41,630 nt of DNA from an uncultured Ruminiclostridium sp. GTDB taxonomy: Bacteria > Bacillota > Clostridia > DSM-8532. The position numbers and the translations under genes are program-made. Below, in pieces: positions 5,789-35,144 of the stretch (its first letter is position 1; each line of letters starts with the position of its first letter). The notes below the pieces were generated by a model. The model searched no databases and was not told where the DNA came from. It saw only the letters and a list, made by a program, of their open reading frames with translations. The stretch is from NCBI GenBank assembly GCA_964391395.1, contig CAYMLJ010000002.1:1-41630 (forward strand), written 5' to 3'.

Positions 5789-6057
5789 TTGCTACACCTC
5801 CCTGCAATCCATATATATAAATGGATATATCTTAATAATCAATTCTTTAACAGCAAAAATCATTTTATCATAATATCGAATGTATTAGCAACTATTTTTA
5901 AAAATTAATCATATTTTGCATGAAATCTTATTCTCATATAGAAAACATTACTAATTTAGCATATTTCAATTGAATTCTTTAATTGAATACGGTTATTAAT
6001 GCAAAAAGCATATAAAACATACTAAAGCTTAATAAAAATTCAGTAATTATCCCATGA

Positions 6058-24471: not shown

Positions 24472-25827
24472 TTATTTGTTTTCATAATACAATGTTACTT
24501 GCTCGGATATACTTCTAATAAAAGAGTTACCTGCTTTTTCTGTAGTATTTTGAGTAAAGACAACAAGAATAAATGGAGTCTTGGCATAAACAATTCCTGC
24601 GTCATTGTATATACCCCGGCCTGAATTTGTTCCCGTTTTATGTGCAATTGGGTACTTTGAAGAAATACGGTTGACTCCTACGGGAATGCGCGAGTTATAT
24701 ACATTCTTCAATAAGGCATCATTAAGTTCTTTCATGTAAAAATCGGAATCCTTGTTAATAAATATATTATAGAGTATTAATGCTGTATCCATAGGAGTTA
24801 AACGGGCACATCGCTTTGCCGTACCGTATTTATCAATATTATTTTTTTGGCTATAACCGATGGCTCCTGCCATTTCTCCATAAAGACGACTATTTTTTAT
24901 ACCCAAACGATTTAAAACTGCATTGCTAAGCGTATTGTCCACTATTCTTAAACATGCATTTGAGTAATTATTATCACTGTAGCTTATCATTGATTTTACC
25001 ATAGGCATAAGCTTGAACTTTCTTCCTGTTACTTTATCGTACCATTTCTTTTCTGTATCAAGTTCTCCGTTTCGCATCATGTCACAAAAAATGTAACCTT
25101 GATATAGCTTTATAACTGAAGCGCTGTTAAAGTATCCCTCGGGAACATTGTCAGTTTCATCTATTCGGGTAAGGCTTTCGTTTACGCCATAAGAATAATT
25201 TGTTTGAAGATCCATTATGAATAATCCGTATATACTGGATATCCCGGACACCTTTTCGGCCTTGCTAATAATATTATTCATATCATATCGAAAATTTTGG
25301 CCTTCGGGACTATCGACATTGTTTGGCGGCAGAATGTCAACTAAGGGGCCCAACGTTGCTGAGGGATTCAGTATAACAGAATTAGGGGTTGGAGCCGGAG
25401 GTAAAGGCGTAGGTGTAGATGACGGTGCAGGTGTAGGAGTAGTTAAAGGCGTAGGGGTAGGCGTCGCTACAGATGATGGCATAGGTGTAGCTGAAGGCGT
25501 AGAAGTAGGTGTAGTTGCAGCTGATGGTGCAGGTATAGGAGTAGGCGTGGCTACAGACGAGGGTGTAGGTGCAGCTGAGGGCGTAGGGGCAGGCGTAGGT
25601 GCAGCTGAGAACATAGCTGAAGGTGAAGGATTAGGGTATAAACTAGGAGTTAATGAAGTTCCAGGTATAGGTTTGGGTGTAGACTCCATTTCAGGTGGCA
25701 AGGCATAAGCATAAGCATAAGTAGGGCTGATAGCTTGTTCAACAAAAAGATTCCTATTGCTCAATCCACTTGATTTAATAATGGTAAGAAAAATGAGCAT
25801 TGTAGCAATAAGGATGCACCTTTTCAT
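24472..25827 (-). CDS. Secreted serine hydrolase, class A beta-lactamase / DD-peptidase-like, with Pro/Thr/Ser-rich linker
   Basis: 451 aa. Signal-like N-terminus and a PT-rich linker of about 100 aa. Then SxxK (SVIK), SDN (YSDN) and KTG (HKTGT) motifs in the correct order. Confidence 0.8.
   Translation of the reverse strand: MKRCILIATMLIFLTIIKSSGLSNRNLFVEQAISPTYAYAYALPPEMESTPKPIPGTSLTPSLYPNPSPSAMFSAAPTPAPTPSAAPTPSSVATPTPIPAPSAATTPTSTPSATPMPSSVATPTPTPLTTPTPAPSSTPTPLPPAPTPNSVILNPSATLGPLVDILPPNNVDSPEGQNFRYDMNNIISKAEKVSGISSIYGLFIMDLQTNYSYGVNESLTRIDETDNVPEGYFNSASVIKLYQGYIFCDMMRNGELDTEKKWYDKVTGRKFKLMPMVKSMISYSDNNYSNACLRIVDNTLSNAVLNRLGIKNSRLYGEMAGAIGYSQKNNIDKYGTAKRCARLTPMDTALILYNIFINKDSDFYMKELNDALLKNVYNSRIPVGVNRISSKYPIAHKTGTNSGRGIYNDAGIVYAKTPFILVVFTQNTTEKAGNSFIRSISEQVTLYYENK
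25378..25680 (-). repeat. Low-complexity, internally repetitive segment encoding the Pro/Thr/Ser/Ala linker
   Basis: Encodes repeated ATPTP / APTPS / PSSVATPTP units (aa about 50-150). On the + strand it reads as reiterated GGTGTAGG / GCAGCTGA units. Confidence 0.8.
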
Positions 25828-25896
25828 AGTACCCCTACTTTCATAACAGTATATTAGAAAGAGAGGCTTAAAATTAACAAAATATTAATTTGGTAA

Positions 25897-25990
25897 AAAT
25901 AGTGCAAACCTTGTCAGGATAAACAAATTTGCTAAAAAAATGAGTTTATAGATAATTAGCAGCAGAGGAACAAAAATTAATAAAAAAAGA
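25897..25990 (+). repeat. Copy A of an 80-95-nt promoter-like repeat module (partner at 28023-28120)
   Basis: ATAGTGCAAACCTT..GTCAGGATAAACAAATTTGCTAAAAAAATGAGTTTATAGATAATTAGCAGCAGAGGAACAA aligns by eye with copy B (identical 11-mer AAACAAATTTG, AGATAATTA, and other blocks). Confidence 0.6.
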
Positions 25991-26010
25991 GCCGCTTCTA
26001 AGAAGCGGTC
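25982..26010 (-). terminator. Intrinsic terminator of the lyxose isomerase-fructokinase unit
   Basis: On the minus strand: GACCGCTTC-TTA-GAAGCGGCTC followed by TTTTTTT. Confidence 0.75.
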
Positions 26011-26071
26011 TTACGTGTTATACATAAAATATTTGTTCCATCAGGGGCGCCTTTGCATACATAATACTTAT

Positions 26072-27039
26072 TTACCCCAACAGTTTTTTTACTTCATCTA
26101 GGCTGGGCATTGCAGGAATTGCGCCTCTTTTCCCCACACAGATGGTAGCTGCAGCATTGCTAAATCGGGCAAAATTAGCGACATTTTCTAATTTCAGCTC
26201 AGAGGGCTCCAAGCCACTTTCTATAAGACAATATAAAAATGATCCCCAAAAAGAATCGCCAGCACCAGTGGTATCAACTACTTTAGCTTCAAAAGTAGGA
26301 ACCGTAGCCATGCCATCCTTTGTACAGACAAGGGCACCGTTTTTGCCTAAAGTGACAGTAACACAAAAAATTCCCATCTTAATCAATTCAGCAGCAGCAT
26401 CTTCAGGACGCCGCATACCCGTGAGAAGCTCAGTTTCTTCATCGGAGATTTTTATGATATCGACAAGGGAAAGGATGGACCTCATTTGCTCAATTGCTTG
26501 TTCGCGGCTTATACATAGGGATGGACGGTAATTTGGGTCATATGAGATAATTGCCCCGGCTTTTTTAGCTTCAGCAATAGCATAGAGAGTAGCACTTCTG
26601 GACGGTTCATCAGTCATTGACAGAGATCCAATATGAAATATTGCTGTGTTTTGAAGTATTTGTTTGTTTACCTCAGATATCGAAAGCTGTGTATCCGCAC
26701 CGGGCTTTCTCGCAAAGCTGAAAGTGCGTTCACCGTTTTTTGATAGAGAAACAAATGCAAGTGTGGTGAAAACATCTTTCCCTATAACCATTCCGCTTGT
26801 GTCAACACCGGCATTTTTAAGAGTATCACGTAGAAATAAGCCATGCATGTCGTCGCCGACTTTCCCGATAAAAGAAGTTTTTTTCCAAGTTTGGCGGCGG
26901 TACAAAGGACATTTGCAACTGCACCACCAGGGTTTTGCTCAAAAAGGCGCATGCCTGCTTTAGAACTACCGCTTTCGGTGAAATCAATCAGGATTTCTCC
27001 CAGGGTAGCTATATCAAATTTCTCATTCATAAAATTCAT
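26072..27039 (-). pseudogene. scrK: Fructokinase (PfkB family), disrupted by a -1 frameshift in a homopolymer
   Basis: The N-terminal 51 aa (MNEKFDIATLGEILIDF...NPGGAVANVLCTAAKLGKK) are in one frame. The rest (TSFIGKVGDDMHG...DTTGAGDSFWG...) is in another. The switch occurs at the A7 run (T7 on the + strand, 26878-26884). An eighth A would restore GKKTSFIGKVGDD. Confidence 0.8.
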
Positions 27040-27719
27040 TCCTTTGCTTTTGGATATTCGTTACAGAGCAGATACAGCGGGGCTTCATCCTCCTCAATAT
27101 CAGGGAAACGGCCATGTTCTTCATAGAAACGATTGTCTGTGTTATCATCATTAACCATAGAGACCTCTCCTATCAGAACCGGGCCATATCCTTCTTCAGC
27201 CCAGAAAGAATGATATTGCCTCTTGGGAAGAGTGATACTCATGCCCGGGGTTAGACGGATAATAGTAGCGGCAGGAACTGTGCTGCAGCAGCCATCAAGA
27301 TTGACTATTACAGGTGTGTCCAGAATATCCCCATTATTGTCCGAATTCCAGACCTGAACCATTAGATTGCCGCCCCCTCGGTTAATAATATCCTCCATTT
27401 TATACCAGTGAAAATGATTAGGGCAGATTTGATTCTCTTTTGATACTAGTAGTTTCTCCGCATAGGGTTTTTCATATTTCTTATTATGCTGATTCCCATT
27501 TCTCAAAGTGAAAAGTACGAGACCAATTTCATCAAATTTGCCATGTCCGTAATCGGTAATGTCCCAGCCAAGCATATTGTCACGAATCTCATCACAATCA
27601 TGCCCGGTCTTCTCCCATTGTGAAGGGGTCCAGAATGCAAAAGGAGGAAGATTATATCCCATAGTTCGAATAAAAGATTCCATTTCCCGTAATATATGAT
27701 TGATTTCAGAACGTTTCAT
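27036..27719 (-). CDS. D-lyxose/D-mannose family sugar isomerase (cupin)
   Basis: 227 aa with strong resemblance to the YdaE/D-lyxose ketol-isomerase family (NHFHWYKMEDIINRGGG, QYHSFWAE). AGGAGG RBS. Its stop overlaps the fructokinase start (ATGA). Confidence 0.8.
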   Translation of the reverse strand: MKRSEINHILREMESFIRTMGYNLPPFAFWTPSQWEKTGHDCDEIRDNMLGWDITDYGHGKFDEIGLVLFTLRNGNQHNKKYEKPYAEKLLVSKENQICPNHFHWYKMEDIINRGGGNLMVQVWNSDNNGDILDTPVIVNLDGCCSTVPAATIIRLTPGMSITLPKRQYHSFWAEEGYGPVLIGEVSMVNDDNTDNRFYEEHGRFPDIEEDEAPLYLLCNEYPKAKE

Positions 27720-27858
27720 AGCATATTTCCTCCTGCATATGGTTTTTTATATCCATTACCATATCACATTTTTTTTAATATTAAAAGCTTTCTGGTCAAA
27801 AGCAGAAAAGCTACAAGAGACACTTCTTTTTAGCTATGGCATAAAAGACATACGTTTA

Positions 27859-27980
27859 CGAAGTATAAGGCATCATTGCCGGTATTGGGGACATAAAGCC
27901 CTTTGACATTAACGTTGCTGATATCATAGTGCCTATTCCTACAACCGAACCGATTGAAAGATCAATATTAATAATACGGC
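27859..27980 (-). pseudogene. Possible remnant of a sugar ABC-transporter permease (RbsC/BPD_transp_2-like)
   Basis: RIINIDLSIGSVVGIGTMISATLMSKGFMSPIPAMM resembles the conserved (I/V)ITGGIDLSVGS...G.NP core of RbsC-type permeases. Only about 40 aa are present, with no proper start or C-terminus. Confidence 0.3.
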
Positions 27981-28022
27981 TCAATCGTCCGATCTCTACA
28001 TAAAAAATCAAAAGGCTGCCGA

Positions 28023-28120
28023 AATAATGCAAACCTTTAATTGACAGGGTAAACAAATTTGGTACAATAAGTGAGTGTAGAGATAATTAACAGCGGAGGG
28101 ACAAGGTTGAAAAAGAATAG
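28023..28120 (+). repeat. Copy B of the promoter-like repeat module
   Basis: It contains TTGACA (28041-28046), a 16-nt spacer, TACAAT (28063-28068), GGAGGG (28095-28100) and a TTG at 28107. That TTG opens only a 16-codon ORF. Aligns with 25897-25990. Confidence 0.6.
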
Positions 28121-28209
28121 TAAATCACCTAATAAGATTAGAGGGCAAACCAAATAGACCACCATATGCTGGTCAAAAACTTGAAGATTGAAAATTGAAT
28201 ACGTTAAGG

Positions 28210-29457
28210 TTATGCAGTTGCTGACTTAATCCTGTAACCTTGAAATCTTGCCATTAATATAGCCTGCTCTATTGTAATTATTCTGTCGGCAGGAAGAGTA
28301 TCTGCGTTTCTGTAAAGTTCGGCATTGTATGATTCTTTTTTCTTTAACATGTTGTATAATGCTGTTAGAAGCATCCTTGCTATTGCAATGATTGCTTTCT
28401 TGTGGCCGCGGCGTTTTCTAAGACGAAGGTAGCGGTTGCGTATTTCTGGGTGCTTTTCACTCTTCACCACAGAGTTGGCGCATTGCACCAAAAGTGGCTT
28501 GATGTAGCATCCGGCTTTGGAAACCCGGACGGATTTTTTCTTCCCTGCACTTTCATTGTTGGTAGGGGTAAGACCTGCCCATGAGCATAAGTGTTTCGCC
28601 GAAGGAAAAGCCTCCATATTGACACCGATTTCTGAGATTATACTAATCGCAGAAAAGATGTTTTTAAACGATGGAGCGGTTAGGATTAGGTCGAGTTCTT
28701 GCTGATAGGGCTTGGCGAGCGCAAGAATCAGTTTTTCTAGCTCTTCTTTCCGGGATCCTAAGTCCTCGCAATGCTTTCTGACAATCTTTAATTTCCCAGC
28801 CTGTTCCGGTGTAATATAACCGTCAATGGCGAGTTCCAGTTCAGGAAGTTTATTCATCATGGAACCATGAATTAAAGGTTTAATGTCAAAAGAAGTATCC
28901 AGAGGATTTTCAAGAATCTTATCGAGAATTTTTTGAGAGCTTTTTCCAAAAGTATCCGACACAACGTTTCCCAACTGAATGTTGGAAACCGTGAGACAGT
29001 TTTGGAGTCGATTCTTTTCGCTGGACATAAAACAGGTTAGCTTGTAACGATAGCGCATAAGGTCACGTAGCTGACGAATATCGGCAGGGGGCATAAAGCT
29101 ACCGGCAACAAGATCATGCTTAAACAGGTCAGCAATCCATTTAGCATCCTTCTTGTCAGTCTTTTTACCACGGATAGCCTTAACATACTTAGGATGTGCA
29201 AGTACAATAAAACAGTCCTTTTCCAGGACGTTGTACACTGGGATCCAGTACTTACCAGTAGACTCCATACATACATCCTTGCAATTAGTTTCAAGTAGCC
29301 ATTGTAACAGCTCTTTCAAACCTTTCGTGTAGGTAGAAAAGCGATGGCTCTTGTAGGTAGTAATACCTTGATTATTAGTGGAAGCGATGCAGGCAACAAC
29401 AAAGGTTTTGTGAACATCAATCCCACAACAAATTTTGTACACGATTTTTAAAGCCAT
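28210..29457 (-). CDS. IS110-family transposase (DEDD_Tnp_IS110 + Transposase_20 domains)
   Basis: MALKIVYKICCGIDVHKTFVV N-terminus (the GIDVHK motif), a central ...DKKDAKWIADL..., and C-terminal SWAGLTPTNNESAGKKKS. I prefer the ATG at 29457 with an AAGGAG RBS. Confidence 0.9.
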   Translation of the reverse strand: MALKIVYKICCGIDVHKTFVVACIASTNNQGITTYKSHRFSTYTKGLKELLQWLLETNCKDVCMESTGKYWIPVYNVLEKDCFIVLAHPKYVKAIRGKKTDKKDAKWIADLFKHDLVAGSFMPPADIRQLRDLMRYRYKLTCFMSSEKNRLQNCLTVSNIQLGNVVSDTFGKSSQKILDKILENPLDTSFDIKPLIHGSMMNKLPELELAIDGYITPEQAGKLKIVRKHCEDLGSRKEELEKLILALAKPYQQELDLILTAPSFKNIFSAISIISEIGVNMEAFPSAKHLCSWAGLTPTNNESAGKKKSVRVSKAGCYIKPLLVQCANSVVKSEKHPEIRNRYLRLRKRRGHKKAIIAIARMLLTALYNMLKKKESYNAELYRNADTLPADRIITIEQAILMARFQGYRIKSATA

Positions 29458-29468
29458 AGGGACTCCTT

Positions 29469-29660
29469 TCCGAACTAGAAGTTCAAAAAAATTATAGGGA
29501 GAAACGGCATTGACTGAACGCCTAACATTTAAACGAGATTGTTTAAACAAAGATAAGGTTACGTACTCAAAGGTACACTTATTTGTGCTTGAAAAGGCGA
29601 TCTACACATATAAAAATACGGTCATCTGAAAAACAGACGGCCCACTCACCTCCCCGTGAT
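29469..29660 (-). ncRNA. Candidate IS110 bridge-RNA-type non-coding leader (hypothetical)
   Basis: The non-coding stretch 5' of the transposase contains several short hairpins on the minus strand (TTTAAAC/GTTTAAA, GTAC/GTAC, TCTG/CAGA). The assignment rests on position only. Confidence 0.3.
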
Positions 29661-29772
29661 TTGTAGTGTACCGGATATCCCTATGGGATCGATTATAAAG
29701 CAAACGAAGCTCAAAGGCACCAATTTCATTACGTTTTGTGCCTTGAGCGAAGCGAAAGGAATGGATATAAAA

Positions 29773-30330
29773 ATGAGAGAATACTATGAAATTAAAATTG
29801 CGGGATTGACAAGGCAGCTTCCTCTCTGCCCTATCAATAAAGATTTGTATATTGGAGCATTCATATTGTTTGGAGATGTTGAGCTTACTGTTGCATGTGC
29901 AGAAGAATTACTCAAAAAAGCTCCGGAGTATGATGTTATGATTACAGCCGAGAGTAAAGGTATCCCGCTTGTTTATGAAATGACGAAACAAGCAGGCTTG
30001 AATAAATATCTTTTGGCAAGGAAATCCGCCAAGCTTTATATGAAAGATGTTGTCAATGTTGAGGTGCAATCTATAACAACTGAAAAAAGGCAAGCACTTT
30101 TTATAGACAGAGATGATGCCGAATACATGAATGGGAAGAGAGTTCTGATTGTGGATGATGTTATAAGCACCGGTGAATCGGTCAAGGCTGTTGAAAAGCT
30201 TGTACAGGAATCAGGGGGCATAGTAGCCGGACGAATGACCATATTAGCCGAAGGCGACGCTAATAAAAGAGATGATATTATTTTCTTGGAACATCTGCCG
30301 CTTTTTGATAAAAATGGAGATGCGCTATAA
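29773..30330 (+). CDS. Type I phosphoribosyltransferase (Apt/Xpt-like)
   Basis: 185 aa from the ATG at 29773. PRPP-binding loop VLIVDDVISTGES. The upstream 39 codons of the track ORF look non-coding. Confidence 0.8.
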   Translation: MREYYEIKIAGLTRQLPLCPINKDLYIGAFILFGDVELTVACAEELLKKAPEYDVMITAESKGIPLVYEMTKQAGLNKYLLARKSAKLYMKDVVNVEVQSITTEKRQALFIDRDDAEYMNGKRVLIVDDVISTGESVKAVEKLVQESGGIVAGRMTILAEGDANKRDDIIFLEHLPLFDKNGDAL

Positions 30331-30345
30331 ATAAAACAACACTTT

Positions 30346-30368
30346 AGCCGCTTTAAATAGCGGCTTTT
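30346..30368. terminator. Shared hairpin between the convergent PRTase and TIR genes
   Basis: AGCCGCT (30346-30352) pairs with AGCGGCT (30359-30365). The U-tracts are short on both strands. Confidence 0.45.
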
Positions 30369-30430: not shown

Positions 30431-33400
30431 TTAATTGATGAACATCTCAGCCTTTTCTTTTTCTGTAAGAGTTCTGCCGTTTAGTTGCCTGTTCGCTTCA
30501 TCCAGCAGCATTTGTGTTGTATAGTATGGCATAATATATAGCGTGGTAGAACCGCTTCCTGTTGTTATAGTAGTAGAAAAATCTTCATTTATATCAGAAA
30601 TATTTGCAGATGCAAGGGTCTTTAATGTGGCAGCATCAAGTATATGTGTATATGAAAGGCCTATTAGTGCTATTTTATCATTGTTTTTGCTGAATACCAC
30701 CTTTTTTAGCGGAGTTGGGAATTGCTCCTTTTCAATTGTTTTTATTAAATTACCGTTAATGGTATCAAATATTGAAATGCTTTCATCAACAAACTGAACG
30801 AATAATAGTTTTTTATCAGGGCTGAGAAGCAAAACAGATTCCTCGGCGATAAGATTATCCAGTGAAACTTTTTCATTAAAGGTATTTTCAATGTCATAAA
30901 TTTTTATACTTTTATTTTTGTATGAAAGTACACAGGTTTTCCCGTCATTACTAATAACACCGTTTGTAATGTCTTTGTCCTCAATATTGAAAATCATATT
31001 CTTTGACTTTATATCGATAATGCTTGCCATATTATTTATATTAATAAAGAATAGCTTATCATCACCTATAAAAGCGCAATAATCAATACTGCTATAATCA
31101 ATAACATCAATAATCTTTAAATCCGGAATAGAGTAAATCGTTATTTCTTCATATGAGGGTATAGCTAAAAGTGATAGGTCAATATTTGTACAAAAGTCAA
31201 AATAAGATTGTGACTGAATTTCAGATAAAACAGTAAAGTCAGAGGTTTTAATTGCTTTTAAGCTTCCTGATGTAAAAGCTACTAGGATTATACTATTCTC
31301 ATCAACAAATATAACTTTTGAAATAGTGTCGTTATAGTTTGCTGAGAGTAAAAGTTTATTATTTGTTAAATCCCAAAGGTAAAGCTCGCTGTTGTCATAT
31401 GTATAAGAAACAGCAAGCTTACCGTCTTGTGATAAAACAGCATTATGTATTGCTTTATTGTGGCCTTCCAGATGTTTAGTATTTTCATTGACTATAGGTT
31501 TATATATATATACTTTTTTTGAGTTCCATAATGAAAAAATAAGTTTACCCTTTGAATGAGCTACCTGATAAATTGATTCGTCCCGGCTTATGCGGTAATC
31601 AGTTATATCATTAGTAATGTTCATTAACCAAAATCTTATTGTTCCGTCGTAGGAGGATGAAATAATAATATCATTAATTATTTGATAATCGGACACTGAA
31701 TCACCATGGATAAATGTAGTTTCTATAACACCTGTTTTTATATCGACCACTTTAATTTTTTCGCCTTCCACCAAGGCCAGTTTTGTTGGATATGAGGAGA
31801 AGAATGTGGCTTTTTCGATATATGAATCCGGGAACATAATGGAAGATTTTTTACCATCGGGAGAAAATACTTCAAGGGAACCTTTTCCCGGATCAAGCAG
31901 ACCGAGTTCTTCACCAAAAAAGTTAGAAATAATGGCAAGAGAACCATCTTCAGAATAATCTATATCAGATATATTATCATAATTTGTTTTATATGTGTTA
32001 ATTAAAGAGTATGATTCCATATCAAACACGAAAGCCTTTCCGACAGAAGTGCCGACAGCAAGAAACTCACTGTTTTTACTAAAAGTCATGCATGATACGT
32101 ATTTAATCAGATCGGTTGAATCAGACGCAGTGGTCATTAAGCAATCAACATCAATAGTATTTAAAACGCTGCCGGAACTTACATCAACAAAGCTTATTTT
32201 CCCCAGGCTATAATAGGCAAGAATATTTTTATGTGCCGAATATGTCATATTTGATGCGTAATCGGTAATCTGCCATATAGAATTGCCATAGATATCCACA
32301 CAAGTGATGTAATTGTCATAATTCGATTCAGATAATGCTACGGCTATAATTGTGTTATTATCAATAAAAAGAATATCCCCATCCACAGGAAAGCCTTTAT
32401 TAGTAAACACTTTACCAAGCGGCTTTCCGTCTTCGATATTCCAAAAATAAATATAGCCGTTTTTACAGTTGGTCAATAATGTTTTGCCATCAGGGCTTAT
32501 ATCGAGGTAGTTAGCATCCATATCATGATCTAGTACTATATCTCCGTCAAAGTAGTAATCTGCTTCATAAACCGACAGTGCTTTTGACATTGCATATTCC
32601 GCTTCATGTACATAAGGCCTTTCAGGATTTGCCATATCCTTAGGAAGAGCTGCTTGTGCAGCTAAAATAGCTCTGTATCTATCCCCGCCTTCGAAATACC
32701 TGTTTGATATGTCAGCAAGATACCTTGATTGGCCTATTTGGGTTTCTTTTATTTGGGCTGTAATTTCTATGTTTTTCTGATTTATTTCATCAGATTTTTG
32801 ATTAATCTCTTCGGATTTCTTACTGATTTCCTGTGATTTCTGATTTATAATAAAGGCCTGATATGTACTAAAAGATCCAAAAGCTAAAAAAAATGCAGAT
32901 AATGATATGGAAGCTGTAAGCACAGCCTTTATCAATCTCTCCCTGTGACGTTGCTTAAGGTCATCATAGCTGCAATTAAGCATTGGCGAAAGTAGACGCA
33001 GAATCTCTGTTTTAAGCTTCTTAAACATCTCTTTTTCGGACACAGCCCTAATGTCTGCAGCTAGTGGCTCCACCTCAACGATGGATTCTATAATTGAACC
33101 ATCCTCCATAGTCTGGGTTTTGTTTATAAAACGCAGTTGTTCCGGAAAGGATTCATTTGGCTCGCCCTCGATTAGTAGTGCAAGGATTTTATTCTGACCA
33201 TGAAGCTTTTTAAAGGTCTCGATTTCTTTTAATACCCATTGAGACTGAGGTGTTCTGGGAGAGCAAATGACTATTAAATAATCAGAGGCCTCCAATGCTA
33301 TTGTAATATTTTCAGCAAGATTAGAAGATGTAGGCAATTCGTCCTGATCTCTAAAGACTCTGTTGATTCGCTTTTTGCCTGATGATTTTACAATACTTTT

Positions 33401-33505
33401 TGGTATTTTAAATGTCTCAAGTAACCGGTGAAGCCTTTCAGCAATGGCTTTATCGGGCTCTGTATGGCGATAACTGATAAAAGCATCATATTTGTATAAA
33501 TTCAT
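30431..33505 (-). CDS. TIR domain / single TM helix / coiled coil / tandem WD40-like beta-propeller protein
   Basis: 1024 aa. aa 4-125 have TIR hallmarks (YDAFISYRH, LIVICSP, W90xxxE94). aa 191-220 are hydrophobic (LIKAVLTASISLSAFFLAFGSFSTYQAFII), preceded by KQRHRER. aa 222-256 form five heptads. aa about 330-1000 hold many blade-like repeats (IYFWNI, GTIRFWL, LYLWDL, IKIYDI, ISIFDT). GAGGAA RBS. Confidence 0.85.
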   Translation of the reverse strand: MNLYKYDAFISYRHTEPDKAIAERLHRLLETFKIPKSIVKSSGKKRINRVFRDQDELPTSSNLAENITIALEASDYLIVICSPRTPQSQWVLKEIETFKKLHGQNKILALLIEGEPNESFPEQLRFINKTQTMEDGSIIESIVEVEPLAADIRAVSEKEMFKKLKTEILRLLSPMLNCSYDDLKQRHRERLIKAVLTASISLSAFFLAFGSFSTYQAFIINQKSQEISKKSEEINQKSDEINQKNIEITAQIKETQIGQSRYLADISNRYFEGGDRYRAILAAQAALPKDMANPERPYVHEAEYAMSKALSVYEADYYFDGDIVLDHDMDANYLDISPDGKTLLTNCKNGYIYFWNIEDGKPLGKVFTNKGFPVDGDILFIDNNTIIAVALSESNYDNYITCVDIYGNSIWQITDYASNMTYSAHKNILAYYSLGKISFVDVSSGSVLNTIDVDCLMTTASDSTDLIKYVSCMTFSKNSEFLAVGTSVGKAFVFDMESYSLINTYKTNYDNISDIDYSEDGSLAIISNFFGEELGLLDPGKGSLEVFSPDGKKSSIMFPDSYIEKATFFSSYPTKLALVEGEKIKVVDIKTGVIETTFIHGDSVSDYQIINDIIISSSYDGTIRFWLMNITNDITDYRISRDESIYQVAHSKGKLIFSLWNSKKVYIYKPIVNENTKHLEGHNKAIHNAVLSQDGKLAVSYTYDNSELYLWDLTNNKLLLSANYNDTISKVIFVDENSIILVAFTSGSLKAIKTSDFTVLSEIQSQSYFDFCTNIDLSLLAIPSYEEITIYSIPDLKIIDVIDYSSIDYCAFIGDDKLFFININNMASIIDIKSKNMIFNIEDKDITNGVISNDGKTCVLSYKNKSIKIYDIENTFNEKVSLDNLIAEESVLLLSPDKKLLFVQFVDESISIFDTINGNLIKTIEKEQFPTPLKKVVFSKNNDKIALIGLSYTHILDAATLKTLASANISDINEDFSTTITTGSGSTTLYIMPYYTTQMLLDEANRQLNGRTLTEKEKAEMFIN
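32738..32845 (-). repeat. Imperfect 21-nt tandem periodicity encoding the heptad segment of the TIR protein
   Basis: Encodes QKSQEIS/KKSEEIN/QKSDEIN/QKNIEIT/AQIKETQ. The + strand shows recurring ...GATTT units, several of them 21 nt apart. Confidence 0.6.
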
Positions 33506-33653
33506 CTTATTTCCTCATTATCCATATTAATAACAGATTAATGTTTAAAAATCTGTGTGTCAAGTATTGTATCTTGATTATTCCAACTAAACAATTATTA
33601 TGGTAACATAAACATAATTGACAAAATTAAATGCATGCAAAGGACAATGTTAT

Positions 33654-35144
33654 ATGACATTAAAAGAATTACTAAATTACGAAGAAATCACTATTCAATG
33701 CCACGACAACCCAGATGCAGATACTATCGCCTCAGGATTTGCCCTATATACTTTTTTTAAAGAGAACAAAAAGCAAGTTCGACTAATATACAGCGGCAGA
33801 GCTAAGATGACAAAATCTAATCTGGTAATCTTGGTAAAGGAATTATCTATACCTCTTGAATATGTAGATAATATTGAAGTTTCCGGGCTGCTGATAACTG
33901 TAGATTGCCAATATGGTGCAGGTAATGTAAAGAGATTTAAAGCTGATAATGTAGCAATAATAGACCATCACCAGCAAGAGATTACTGATGTTCCTCTAAG
34001 CGAAATAAGGTACTATTTAGGTAGCTGCTCAACACTGGTATGGCAGATGTTGGAGGAAGAAGGTTTCAAAGTTAATGAACACCCTAATGTTGCCACAGCA
34101 CTCTATTACGGATTGCTTATAGACACCAATGGCTTTACAGAGCTACATCATCCCTCCGATAGGGATATGAAAGATATTTTGGATCATGATTCCGAGCTTA
34201 TCCGAAAACATAAAAATTCAAATTTAACCATGCACGAGTTGGAGATAGCGGGAATAGCTCTACTAAGAAGCTCATACAATTCAGCCAATAGGTTTTCTAT
34301 TATAAAAACCCAACCATGCGATCCCAATATACTCGGGTTTATAAGCGATTTAGCTATTCAAGTTGATTCTATTGATGTATGTATTGTGTATCATGAAATA
34401 GAAACAGGAATAAAATTTTCTGTTCGCAGCTGTGTTAAAGAAATTATGGCCTCTGAGTTAGCAGAATATGTTTCTGAAGGAATCGGTTCAGGCGGAGGGC
34501 ACAATGACAAAGGCGGCGGTTTTATAAGCAAGAGTGAGTTTATTCGCCGATACCCTGCAATTAATGCTGACGAATACTTACTTACTCAACTGACAAAGTA
34601 TTTTGGCAGCTTCACAGTTATTGATTGTGCATTAGACAAGCCTGATATAACTACTATGGAAATATATAAGAAACGTCCTTTATTACAAGGGTATGTAAAA
34701 TGCACCGATGTATTTGAGAAGGGAACGCCAATAATAATAAGAACACTGCAATGTGACATGGATGATTTGATCTCTGATGATAATATTTATATTGTAATAG
34801 GAATAAAGGGAGATGTTCACCCTGTATCAAAGGATAAATTTCTTATGGGATATAAAATCATAGACGAGCCTTATGAGATTGAGACCCAATACTTTCCCCA
34901 TATTCGCAATAAAAATACAGGACGCATTGTTGACTTACAGCCTTATGCTAAAAAATGTGTATCTAACGGAGAGGTTAATATTTATGCAAAACCATTGTCA
35001 GAGACCGTAAAAGTATTTACCTTATGGGACAGGGATACATACATGCTTGGAAAGCCCGGCGATTATCTAGTAGTAAGGAAAGATGATGAGAATGATATTT
35101 ATACTATCCCTAAGGATATATTTGAAATTATGTATGAAAAATAG
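33654..35144 (+). CDS. DHH/DHHA1-family phosphoesterase with extra ~170-aa C-terminal region
   Basis: Motifs in order: HDNPDADT, ITVDC, IIDHHQ (DHH), LLIDTNGF and GGGH (DHHA1). I prefer the ATG at 33654 over the track's TTG at 33618. aa about 330-496 match nothing I recognise. Confidence 0.85.
   Translation: MTLKELLNYEEITIQCHDNPDADTIASGFALYTFFKENKKQVRLIYSGRAKMTKSNLVILVKELSIPLEYVDNIEVSGLLITVDCQYGAGNVKRFKADNVAIIDHHQQEITDVPLSEIRYYLGSCSTLVWQMLEEEGFKVNEHPNVATALYYGLLIDTNGFTELHHPSDRDMKDILDHDSELIRKHKNSNLTMHELEIAGIALLRSSYNSANRFSIIKTQPCDPNILGFISDLAIQVDSIDVCIVYHEIETGIKFSVRSCVKEIMASELAEYVSEGIGSGGGHNDKGGGFISKSEFIRRYPAINADEYLLTQLTKYFGSFTVIDCALDKPDITTMEIYKKRPLLQGYVKCTDVFEKGTPIIIRTLQCDMDDLISDDNIYIVIGIKGDVHPVSKDKFLMGYKIIDEPYEIETQYFPHIRNKNTGRIVDLQPYAKKCVSNGEVNIYAKPLSETVKVFTLWDRDTYMLGKPGDYLVVRKDDENDIYTIPKDIFEIMYEK

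Follow-up and report, generated by a model that had tools for sequence, protein, structure and literature searches.

A candidate two-gene transmembrane TIR signalling module in an uncultured Ruminiclostridium

Results

A 41,630-nucleotide stretch of DNA from an uncultured Ruminiclostridium sp. (assembly GCA_964391395.1, contig CAYMLJ010000002.1, positions 1 to 41,630; hereafter the window) carries two divergent genes that form the subject of this study. One encodes a receptor-like protein of 1024 residues, comprising an N-terminal TIR domain, a juxtamembrane module, a predicted transmembrane (TM) helix, a helical stalk, and two WD40 propellers. The other encodes a 496-residue DHH/DHHA1 phosphoesterase. 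Based on domain content, conservation pattern, predicted folds, gene linkage and natural fusions, we judge the chances to be about even that the locus is a two-gene transmembrane TIR signalling module. The coordinates of the features are given in Table 1.

Linkage of the receptor and DHH genes

Neighbours of the receptor were surveyed using crude gene calls on 80 homologous receptor loci followed by clustering. A single cluster, of proteins of approximately 505 residues, occurred within five genes of the receptor in 55 of 75 loci, and the DHH protein of the window was a full-length homologue of 54 of its 55 members, with 45-84% identity. In a tblastn recount, the DHH gene was found in 57 of the 75 receptor loci, corresponding to 57 of the 71 with adequate flanks, and was directly adjacent to the receptor in 49. 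It occurred upstream or downstream of the receptor, on the same strand or, less often, the opposite one, giving four classes of orientation and order. In Blautia, the DHH and TIR genes overlap by 20 nt. The pair was the only constant while its flanks differed: these were OTCase/GNAT and a phosphoribosyltransferase (PRT) in the window lineage, purH and glnS in many Lachnospiraceae, and a LysM hydrolase together with further TIR and trypsin genes in Defluviitalea.

An earlier sequence-only reading of the window had described the receptor as a candidate single-gene sensor-effector. This linkage, the gene overlaps, and a natural fusion described below speak against that description. The same reading had found no partner in the window. 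Indeed, none of the domains it listed (STAND, SIR2, cyclase, SAVED and Argonaute) was detected in the receptor or its window neighbours, but it had passed over the conserved DHH gene. The mechanical open reading frame (ORF) of this gene starts at a TTG at 33618; homologues favour the ATG at 33654.

The partner protein and its C-terminal domain

By its motifs and two-lobe fold, the partner is a DHH/DHHA1 phosphoesterase. Pfam matched DHH (E = 1.8e-16, 61 bits) and, weakly, DHHA1. Across 48 sequences, D21 and D23 of the DxD motif, D84, D104-H105-H106, D157, and G280-G-G-H283 were invariant or nearly so. The AlphaFold2 model had a predicted local distance difference test (pLDDT) score of 91.3 and a predicted template modelling (pTM) score of 0.86. 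Using this model, Foldseek retrieved the TM1595 pApA phosphodiesterase, NrnA/Pde2, the catalytic domain of GdpP, Rv2837c and DhhP over approximately 345 columns (E ~1e-17). The protein is strongly conserved: the top 120 homologues were at least 50% identical to it, and the mean column identity was 57%.

The phosphoesterase core is followed by a rare, beta-rich domain of approximately 181 residues, here called the C-domain. A profile of this domain retrieved nothing under E = 0.8 from the PDB sequences, and the full-length Foldseek matches of the partner were dominated by the DHH core and provided no identity for the C-domain. Its likeness to PGDYG (PF14083) is faint: Pfam reported no match in the window partner and weak matches in four of 14 homologues, the best at E = 0.022. 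No description of the PGDYG domain was found in full-text literature searches. The C-domain alone, searched against 1.84 billion representative proteins, was present in 330. The commonest architecture was the DHH protein of approximately 500 residues, and in an extended form the DHH-DHHA1-C-domain unit is followed by a bona fide PGDYG domain (E = 4e-28). Other architectures included P0380, a natural 689-residue fusion of TIR_2, DHH and C-domain; seven proteins of 750-836 residues that combine a class III adenylate/guanylate cyclase, a DHHA1-like remnant and the C-domain; and P0261, in which a degenerate DHH motif (DHH to DRR) and the C-domain are joined to GGDEF.

The genomic context of three divergent partner forms (L095, L096 and L097) was looked up, and all three adjoin TIR genes. 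In L095, a gene for a 302-residue TIR protein overlaps the cyclase-DHHA1-like-C-domain fusion by 29 nt. In L096, the GGDEF fusion is divergent from a 932-residue receptor of the present family, complete with TIR domain, EPLAAD and DDLKQR motifs, TM helix and propeller, in the same layout as in the window. In L097, a DHH, C-domain and PGDYG gene is followed by a TIR-TM protein and then by a second TIR protein. Every C-domain carrier examined had a link to a nucleotide-signalling enzyme (DHH, class III cyclase or GGDEF) or to TIR.

Neighbourhood, gene overlap and domain fusion thus agree in pointing to a joint function of TIR domains and the DHH/DHHA1-C-domain unit. The TIR link is kept where the DHH histidines have been lost, as in the GGDEF form, or where only a DHHA1-like remnant is left, as in the cyclase forms. 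This pattern suggests that the unit binds a nucleotide made by the TIR domain, which it would hydrolyse when the DHH site is active and sense when it is not.

The TIR domain and juxtamembrane module

The receptor belongs to the TIR and WD40 superfamilies. Pfam matched TIR_2 at residues 9-130 (E = 4.6e-11; 43.7 bits against a cut-off of 28), ThsB_TIR (34.3 bits against 21.2) and TIR (30.1 bits against 21.3), and many WD40 and beta-propeller models matched residues ~327-913. In an alignment of 72 homologues, E94 was invariant in all 72, S88 was invariant, W90 was at least 90% conserved, and FISYRH, FRD and other motifs were invariant. HMMER aligned E94 with the Glu of the S-x-W-C-x-x-E-L helix of plant TIR domains and Toll-like receptors (TLRs), as in SSWCLDEL of AT1G72930 and SEWCHYEL of TLRs, which is the catalytic Glu position of NADase TIR domains. 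The best PDB sequence matches were the TIR domains of TLR1 and TLR6. From these features, the domain is predicted to be an NAD+-cleaving enzyme.

The juxtamembrane segment is among the most conserved parts of the receptor. In the 72-sequence alignment, E146, P147, L148, A150, D151 and R153 were invariant and DDLKQRHRER nearly so. The AlphaFold2 model, built from the same alignment (mean pLDDT 88.3, pTM 0.72), placed strands at 126-132, 138-144 and 148-151 in this module, followed by a helix at 157-176. Overall, it arranged the chain as TIR fold, sheet, helices 157-176 and 180-218, a long helix at 227-272, the cap, strands, and two terminal helices. Pfam detected no P-loop or STAND domain in the receptor, and residues 126-315 were modelled as a small sheet and helices. 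Searched against PADLOC, the receptor gave TIR-only matches, at E = 1.7e-7 or weaker.

The membrane segment and topology

Three features served to predict receptor topology: hydropathy, charge bias and the lack of a signal peptide. The receptor contains a single hydrophobic segment, residues 191-222, whose best 19-residue window had a Kyte-Doolittle value of 1.95. Its position-independent Hessa sum was +1.2 kcal/mol, as compared with +7.6 for the next-best segment of the protein. Of 120 homologues, 116 had a hydrophobic segment in the corresponding place. Family-wide, the 15-residue flank on the N-terminal side contained a mean of 5.0 Lys and Arg residues versus 3.0 on the C-terminal side, with the N-terminal side richer in 96 proteins and poorer in five. 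No N-terminal signal sequence was found. Because the receptor lacks a signal peptide, because a 190-residue, predicted NAD-using domain precedes its only TM helix, and because the family shows a positive-inside bias, the most economical prediction is a single-pass protein with its N-terminus inside and its C-terminus outside: the TIR domain would be cytoplasmic and the propellers extracytoplasmic. Cysteine depletion was considered as an indicator of export and set aside as uninformative (1.12% after the TM helix versus 1.47%).

In the middle of the TM helix lies a family-wide FGSFS or FGGF motif (F209-G210, codons 32876-32881). F209 was invariant and G210 at least 90% conserved in the 72 sequences, which suggests that the two residues form a specific helix-helix packing interface.

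Stalk, cap, propellers and tail

The stalk includes five heptads (KSQEISK, KSEEINQ, KSDEINQ, KNIEITA and QIKETQI) encoded by a tandem repeat at 32774-32848, to which Tandem Repeats Finder assigned a period of 21 bp and 3.6 copies. In a survey drawn from 120 homologues, the distance from DDLxQR to GDR was 59, 66, 73, 80, 87 or 94 residues in 90 of 94 proteins. Variation by whole heptads is what would be expected if register must be kept to couple the ectodomain to the TM helix. In the cap, helices were modelled at 276-286 and 300-310, and G274, D275, R276, L287, P288 and P297 were conserved. The AlphaFold2 model contained approximately 56 beta-strands over residues 319-992, which amounts to 14 blades or two seven-bladed propellers. 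Foldseek against the PDB ranked the tandem WD40 proteins Apaf-1, Utp21, Aip1 and COPB2 at the top (E ~1e-28). In the tail, P993, L1000, A1004 and L1008 were conserved.

Most of what the sequence-only reading had said of the receptor itself was borne out. The 1024-residue ORF is intact, on the minus strand, which had been left unstated. The motifs YDAFISYRH, LIVICSP and W90-V-L-K-E94 are all present, and the TIR_2 search that the reading had proposed placed the domain above the cut-off with its Glu retained in the alignment. The segment EPLAADIRA...DDLKQRHRER is real and highly conserved, the single 30-residue hydrophobic helix reported at 191-220 was recovered as 191-222, and the five heptads are there. 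Pfam, AlphaFold2 and hydropathy gave the same order of TIR domain, juxtamembrane segment, one TM helix, coiled coil and double propeller, and AlphaFold2 and Foldseek, the checks that had been suggested, agreed with the estimate of about two WD40-like propellers.

The receptor family

Homologues of the receptor formed 2618 protein clusters at E < 1e-5, of ~1000-residue proteins, almost all annotated with TIR and WD40 domains. At least 523 species-level reference genomes encode a relative; these are mainly Lachnospiraceae and other Clostridia, with a few outliers. The nearest relatives, 84% and 73% identical, are encoded in Ruminiclostridium and Clostridiaceae metagenome-assembled genomes. Conservation is graded along the chain (Table 1): the propellers are presumed to be a rapidly diversifying sensor, in contrast to the conserved TIR effector side.

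Table 1. Features of the receptor and DHH genes and their surroundings, with median identity of receptor parts to the query
Feature	Position	Strand	Median identity	Remarks
TIR/TM/coiled-coil/double-WD40 gene, 1024 aa	30431-33505 including stop	minus		intact ATG-started ORF
TIR domain, aa 1-125	33131-33505	minus	65%	Pfam TIR_2
Glu94 codon (catalytic-type)	33224-33226	minus
Juxtamembrane module, aa 126-190	32936-33130	minus	58%	three-stranded sheet with EPLxADxR, then two helices ending DDLKQRHRER
Predicted single TM helix, aa 191-222	32840-32935	minus	47%	hydropathy, conservation; F209-G210 (FGSFS) small-residue motif
Helical stalk/coiled coil, aa 223-272	32690-32839	minus	36%	AlphaFold2 helix 227-272, five heptads
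Helical cap before propellers, aa 273-315	32561-32689	minus	51%	GDR, ALP and PERPY motifs
Two seven-bladed WD40 propellers, aa 316-992	30530-32560	minus	17-20%	presumed sensor, fast-evolving; Pfam, AlphaFold2, Foldseek
C-terminal helical tail, aa 993-1024	30434-30529	minus	53%	AlphaFold2 helices 997-1007 and 1015-1020
TIR-DHH divergent intergenic region	33506-33653			back-to-back promoter-like sites, consensus matches only
Partner gene, 496-aa DHH/DHHA1 phosphoesterase with PGDYG-like C-terminal domain	33654-35144	plus		divergent neighbour
Partner C-terminal domain, ~181 aa	34599-35141	plus		beta-rich, PGDYG-like; rare
Terminator-like hairpin between convergent 3' ends of PRT and TIR genes	30346-30365	plus		consensus match only

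Some genomes encode more than one receptor. Tandem TIR-TM-WD40 paralogues with divergent propellers occur in L002 (6763-9882 and 9983-13069), and there are several paralogues per genome in L004 and L006, from one assembly, and in P0028 and P0029, on one 45-kb contig, apparently with one shared DHH gene. In a shorter receptor subclass of approximately 830-880 residues (L089, L093 and ~13 more loci), the DHH gene is always immediately upstream on the same strand, and in Lachnospiraceae the neighbourhood is conserved as purH-DHH-TIR-glnS-DUF2225-MocR. In Defluviitalea saccharophila CP121687 (L085, 8001-17503), several TIR-TM-ectodomain proteins are clustered. This cluster encodes the DHH protein, a 162-residue LOR/tubby-like protein, a 778-residue TIR-trypsin protein, a 984-residue TIR-TM-WD40 protein, a 303-residue trypsin-like protein, and a protein with TIR and TM segments.

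The DHH-C-domain gene also stands beside another kind of membrane-sensor cluster, in Methylomusa anaerophila (L087, 9874-17464) and in L092 (1-6957). This cluster encodes a DUF4062-nSTAND1-CHASE2 protein of approximately 1020 residues, a propeller/Calx-beta/integrin-beta-like or tetratricopeptide repeat (TPR) protein, and small secreted proteins. The TIR-like DUF4062 N-terminus, seen in one nSTAND1-CHASE2 cluster, scored 23 bits, just under the Pfam cut-off.

Genomic context

The 142 nearest non-DHH, non-TIR neighbours from 72 loci were compared with PADLOC and Pfam. They were mostly housekeeping proteins: glutaminyl-tRNA synthetase (12 loci), PurH (eight loci), MgsA, aldolases, tryptophan synthase, RsmF and GreA. 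A defence-island setting was rejected, as no PADLOC model matched more than four of the 142 proteins and those matches were scattered. The sequence-only reading had suggested looking for enrichment in such islands and had named an exclusively housekeeping setting of the homologues as evidence against its proposal; the setting found is largely of that kind.

In close relatives, the gene order is PGA_cap, PRT, a variable slot, DHH, OTCase and GNAT. The slot is occupied by the TIR-TM-WD40 gene in the window and L001 and by two tandem paralogues in L002. It is empty in L082 (172 bp, 5829-6001), and in L083 (2266-5905), and likely also in L084, it holds a gerAA/gerAB/gerAC-like spore germinant receptor operon. 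Thus, the DHH gene stays in place while the membrane receptor gene next to it in the window gives way to a different one in L083.

In the window, a block of approximately 5 kb (24472-29550) separates PGA_cap from PRT and contains a beta-lactamase-like gene, a PfkB sugar kinase gene, a D-lyxose isomerase gene and an IS110-family transposase gene. PGA_cap and PRT are adjacent in L001, L002, L082 and L083, so the IS110 element is unrelated to the TIR gene, and an IS110-borne accessory segment including the TIR gene was rejected. The sequence-only reading had placed the receptor in an accessory stretch next to the IS110 element; the element belongs to a separate insertion, but the TIR gene is indeed variably present in close relatives.

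The TIR gene has a GC content of 0.342 and a GC content at third codon positions (GC3) of 0.295, as compared with 0.398 ± 0.030 and 0.351 ± 0.030 for the other 29 ORFs of the window. The low GC is concentrated in the propeller region, and the slightly low GC3 fits the variable presence of the gene. The AT-richness that the sequence-only reading had noticed by eye is therefore true but weak: GC and GC3 fall approximately 1.9 standard deviations short of the window average, GC3 is similar in several other genes including DHH, and a strong compositional anomaly was rejected.

The PRT gene (29656-30330, plus strand), convergent with the TIR gene, matched the adenine-PRT subfamily PRK07322 (215 bits) and, weakly, PADLOC ShosT. 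It was set aside as probably not a component of the system: it is retained where the TIR gene is absent (L082 and L083), and its adenine-PRT match is above the cut-off. The hairpin between the two genes has a 7-pair stem with 5 G-C pairs and a T run after the stem. The intergenic region between the TIR and DHH genes contains a minus-strand promoter-like site running from 33624 to 33597 (TTGTCA/16/CATAAT, 10/12), a plus-strand one from 33574 to 33601 (9/12), and an RBS-like (ribosome-binding site) AGGA at each gene, all of them consensus matches only.

Discussion

The proposed module and its alternatives

In the proposed module, the direction of information flow that we infer is from the envelope to the cytoplasm. 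The trigger would be a ligand or an envelope event at the propellers that alters how the stalk and TM helices pack or oligomerise. With no NTPase in the receptor, the TM helix and coiled coil would have to bring about oligomerisation. The altered state would assemble the TIR domains into an active NAD+-cleaving form, which would produce a nucleotide, presumably of the ADP-ribose type. The cytoplasmic DHH/DHHA1-C-domain protein would bind and hydrolyse this nucleotide, so that the signal is reset or shaped. In lineages in which a degenerate DHH unit is fused to GGDEF or a class III cyclase, binding may be relayed into the synthesis of c-di-GMP or cyclic nucleoside monophosphates. On a bolder reading, the pair would be a hitherto unrecognised outside-in second-messenger pathway of gut and rumen Clostridia, in which TIR receptors would signal and the DHH/DHHA1-PGDYG-like module would read and erase the nucleotide, in ordinary signalling instead of, or besides, abortive phage defence. 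We consider this bolder reading possible, though less likely than not.

Several observations weigh against the proposed module. Fourteen TIR loci with good flanks have no DHH gene, although some DHH-less loci are second paralogues whose other copy in the genome is paired with DHH (L006 versus L004). From the DHH side, a contig scan with a single DHH protein gave close relatives L081-L084 only, and these were supplemented with eleven exact-protein look-ups; in the DHH-only sample, three of ten loci had a TIR-TM-propeller gene, two had nSTAND1-CHASE2 clusters, and five had neither. Dependence is thus asymmetric, the receptor usually occurring with the DHH protein and the DHH protein not depending on the receptor. 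In the window lineage, where the DHH gene is fixed, the TIR gene may be found, missing or exchanged for gerABC, and a variable insertion slot could account in part for the adjacency of the two there. A role for the C-domain is suggested only by its domain contexts, and we know of no DHH enzyme that acts on ADP-ribose-type TIR products. As to topology, the TM segment contains many Ser and Thr residues, its hydrophobicity is no more than moderate (Hessa +1.2), and Cys is not depleted after it. The positive charges on the N-terminal side of the helix, which the sequence-only reading had pointed out, hold for the family; the 15-residue flanks of the window protein itself contain four Lys and Arg residues each, and its bias is only local (RHRERLIK).

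Most characterised bacterial TIR systems are defence systems, and the locus might be a Thoeris-like anti-phage system acting by abortive infection, in which attack on the envelope is sensed and an NAD-derived signal activates the DHH protein as a nuclease effector, or NAD+ is depleted. Hypervariable propellers (17-20% median identity), tandem or multiple paralogues (L002; L004 and L006; P0028 and P0029), and a TIR gene of slightly low GC3 that is present, absent or replaced at a fixed slot would all suit such a system, as would the occurrence of the DHH partner near DUF4062-nSTAND1-CHASE2 and TIR-trypsin clusters that resemble conflict systems. It is the strongest of the alternatives, but we consider it rather unlikely: housekeeping genes dominate the flanks, the PADLOC matches are weak, TIR-only or scattered, and the order purH-DHH-TIR-glnS is maintained over long range in Lachnospiraceae. 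Moreover, the partner is unusually conserved for a defence effector and is retained where the TIR gene is missing, and its unit occurs in fusions with GGDEF and cyclase output domains, which point to signalling over killing. The receptor could also act on its own, coiled-coil clustering triggering the TIR NADase beside a functionally unrelated DHH gene. Sensor, transmission and effector parts do lie on one chain, 14 well-flanked loci have no adjacent DHH gene, and the DHH gene stays where the TIR gene is absent. This autonomy appears improbable in light of 80% linkage in several gene orders and across distant Clostridia, the gene overlaps, the TIR-DHH-C-domain fusion P0380, and the TIR linkage of the divergent partner architectures; the second paralogues noted above account for some of the DHH-less loci.

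Two further explanations concern the receptor's mode of action. A non-catalytic TIR domain might serve as a scaffold that recruits the DHH protein or regulates it allosterically by contact, tuning the turnover of pApA, c-di-AMP or nanoRNA upon an envelope signal. The nearest folds of the partner are pApA and c-di-AMP phosphodiesterases, it is highly conserved and sometimes alone, like a housekeeping enzyme, and the invariant EPLxADxR surface could serve as a docking site. We give this little credence, as the invariance of E94 and of S-x-W-x-x-x-E in 72 sequences is expected of an active TIR NADase, and degenerate DHH-GGDEF or cyclase units beside TIR genes are better explained by a diffusible ligand than by docking. 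Finally, the receptor might not span the membrane: the hydrophobic helix would be buried at the core of an oligomeric stalk in the cytoplasm, and the propellers would sense an intracellular ligand in the manner of Apaf-1, though with no NTPase. WD40 proteins usually work inside the cell, and Apaf-1 is among the best fold matches; the segment is rich in Ser, Thr and Gly, its Hessa sum is just positive, the AlphaFold2 model has low confidence over residues 213-228, and the C-terminal part shows no Cys depletion. Yet an uncharged stretch of approximately 29-32 residues keeps its place in 116 of 120 homologues and is flanked on a single side by an Arg/Lys-rich motif, no other segment of the receptor comes near its hydrophobicity (+1.2 versus +7.6), and sister TIR proteins of the same clusters have single TM segments followed by other C-terminal domains. 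We regard this last explanation as very improbable.

Should the outside-in pathway be correct, it would place a TIR sensor outside the membrane. To our knowledge, all characterised bacterial TIR systems sense intracellular events, mostly in abortive phage defence. The pathway would also constitute a bacterial functional analogue of TLR-type receptors and a tractable model of how an ectodomain activates TIR domains through a TM helix and coiled coil. The family is widespread among major commensals of gut and rumen, the Lachnospiraceae and related Clostridia, where its inheritance is partly vertical. Its receptor is wired to a nucleotide phosphodiesterase module that is elsewhere fused to GGDEF and cyclase outputs; the pathway would thereby tie TIR-derived nucleotides to classical second-messenger networks and assign a function to the uncharacterised PGDYG-like domain family. 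Were the locus instead to serve in defence, its DHH partner and extracytoplasmic sensor would still be new as components.

Comparison with known systems

The partner domains that define the Thoeris, TIR-STAND/Avs, CBASS, Pycsar and SPARTA systems were sought without success, and the locus is therefore not a member of any of them. Its likeness to Thoeris lies in the genetic coupling of a TIR protein with another protein expected to bind a TIR-made, NAD-derived nucleotide, and in the ThsB_TIR match of 34 bits. However, PADLOC matched the receptor to ThsB at E = 1.3e-4 only; ThsB is soluble, whereas the receptor is a predicted membrane protein with a large propeller ectodomain; and the partner is DHH/DHHA1-PGDYG-like, not SIR2-SLOG or Macro-TM, in a locus outside defence islands. 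No ThsA-type effector, whether SIR2-SLOG, Macro-TM or another described type, was found among the window neighbours or the 142 flanking proteins. TIR-STAND proteins, including plant TNLs and bacterial Avs/bNACHT-TIR, likewise couple an effector to repeat sensors, as does Apaf-1, which shares the tandem seven-bladed propellers; the receptor differs from these in lacking an NTPase domain and in its predicted extracytoplasmic sensor. The CD-NTase, pyrimidine cyclase and Argonaute of CBASS, Pycsar and SPARTA, respectively, were absent from the window.

With the animal Toll-like and IL-1 receptors, the receptor shares a repeat ectodomain, a single TM helix and a predicted cytoplasmic TIR domain. 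The TLR-like layout proposed by the sequence-only reading is consistent with the computational evidence in its inside/outside logic, but its polarity is reversed: here the TIR domain is N-terminal and the ectodomain C-terminal (type II). The ectodomain consists of WD40 propellers and not of leucine-rich repeats or immunoglobulin domains. The TIR domains of TLRs are scaffolds, whereas this one keeps a catalytic-type Glu and is predicted to be enzymatic. The analogy is topological only, with no evidence for a common descent of the architecture.

The partner shares the DHH and GGGH motifs and the two-lobe fold with NrnA/Pde2, TM1595, GdpP, Rv2837c/CnpB and DhhP. It differs from these stand-alone DHH/DHHA1 enzymes in its additional PGDYG-like domain of approximately 180 residues and in its linkage to a TIR gene. 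In type III CRISPR systems, a membrane-associated DHH-DHHA1 ring nuclease provides a precedent for the erasure of a defence second messenger by an enzyme of this kind: it breaks down the messenger of those systems (Zhao et al. 2020, as cited in PMC7824862).

Full-text literature searches returned no account of the TIR-TM-WD40 architecture as a system or of the TIR-DHH pairing. The combination of a cytoplasmic enzyme, one TM helix and an extracytoplasmic sensor is familiar from PknD, a Ser/Thr kinase with a beta-propeller ectodomain, and from receptor-type nucleotide cyclases. The output domain here is TIR, not a kinase or cyclase, and the module is probably an undescribed system relaying outside signals into the cell.

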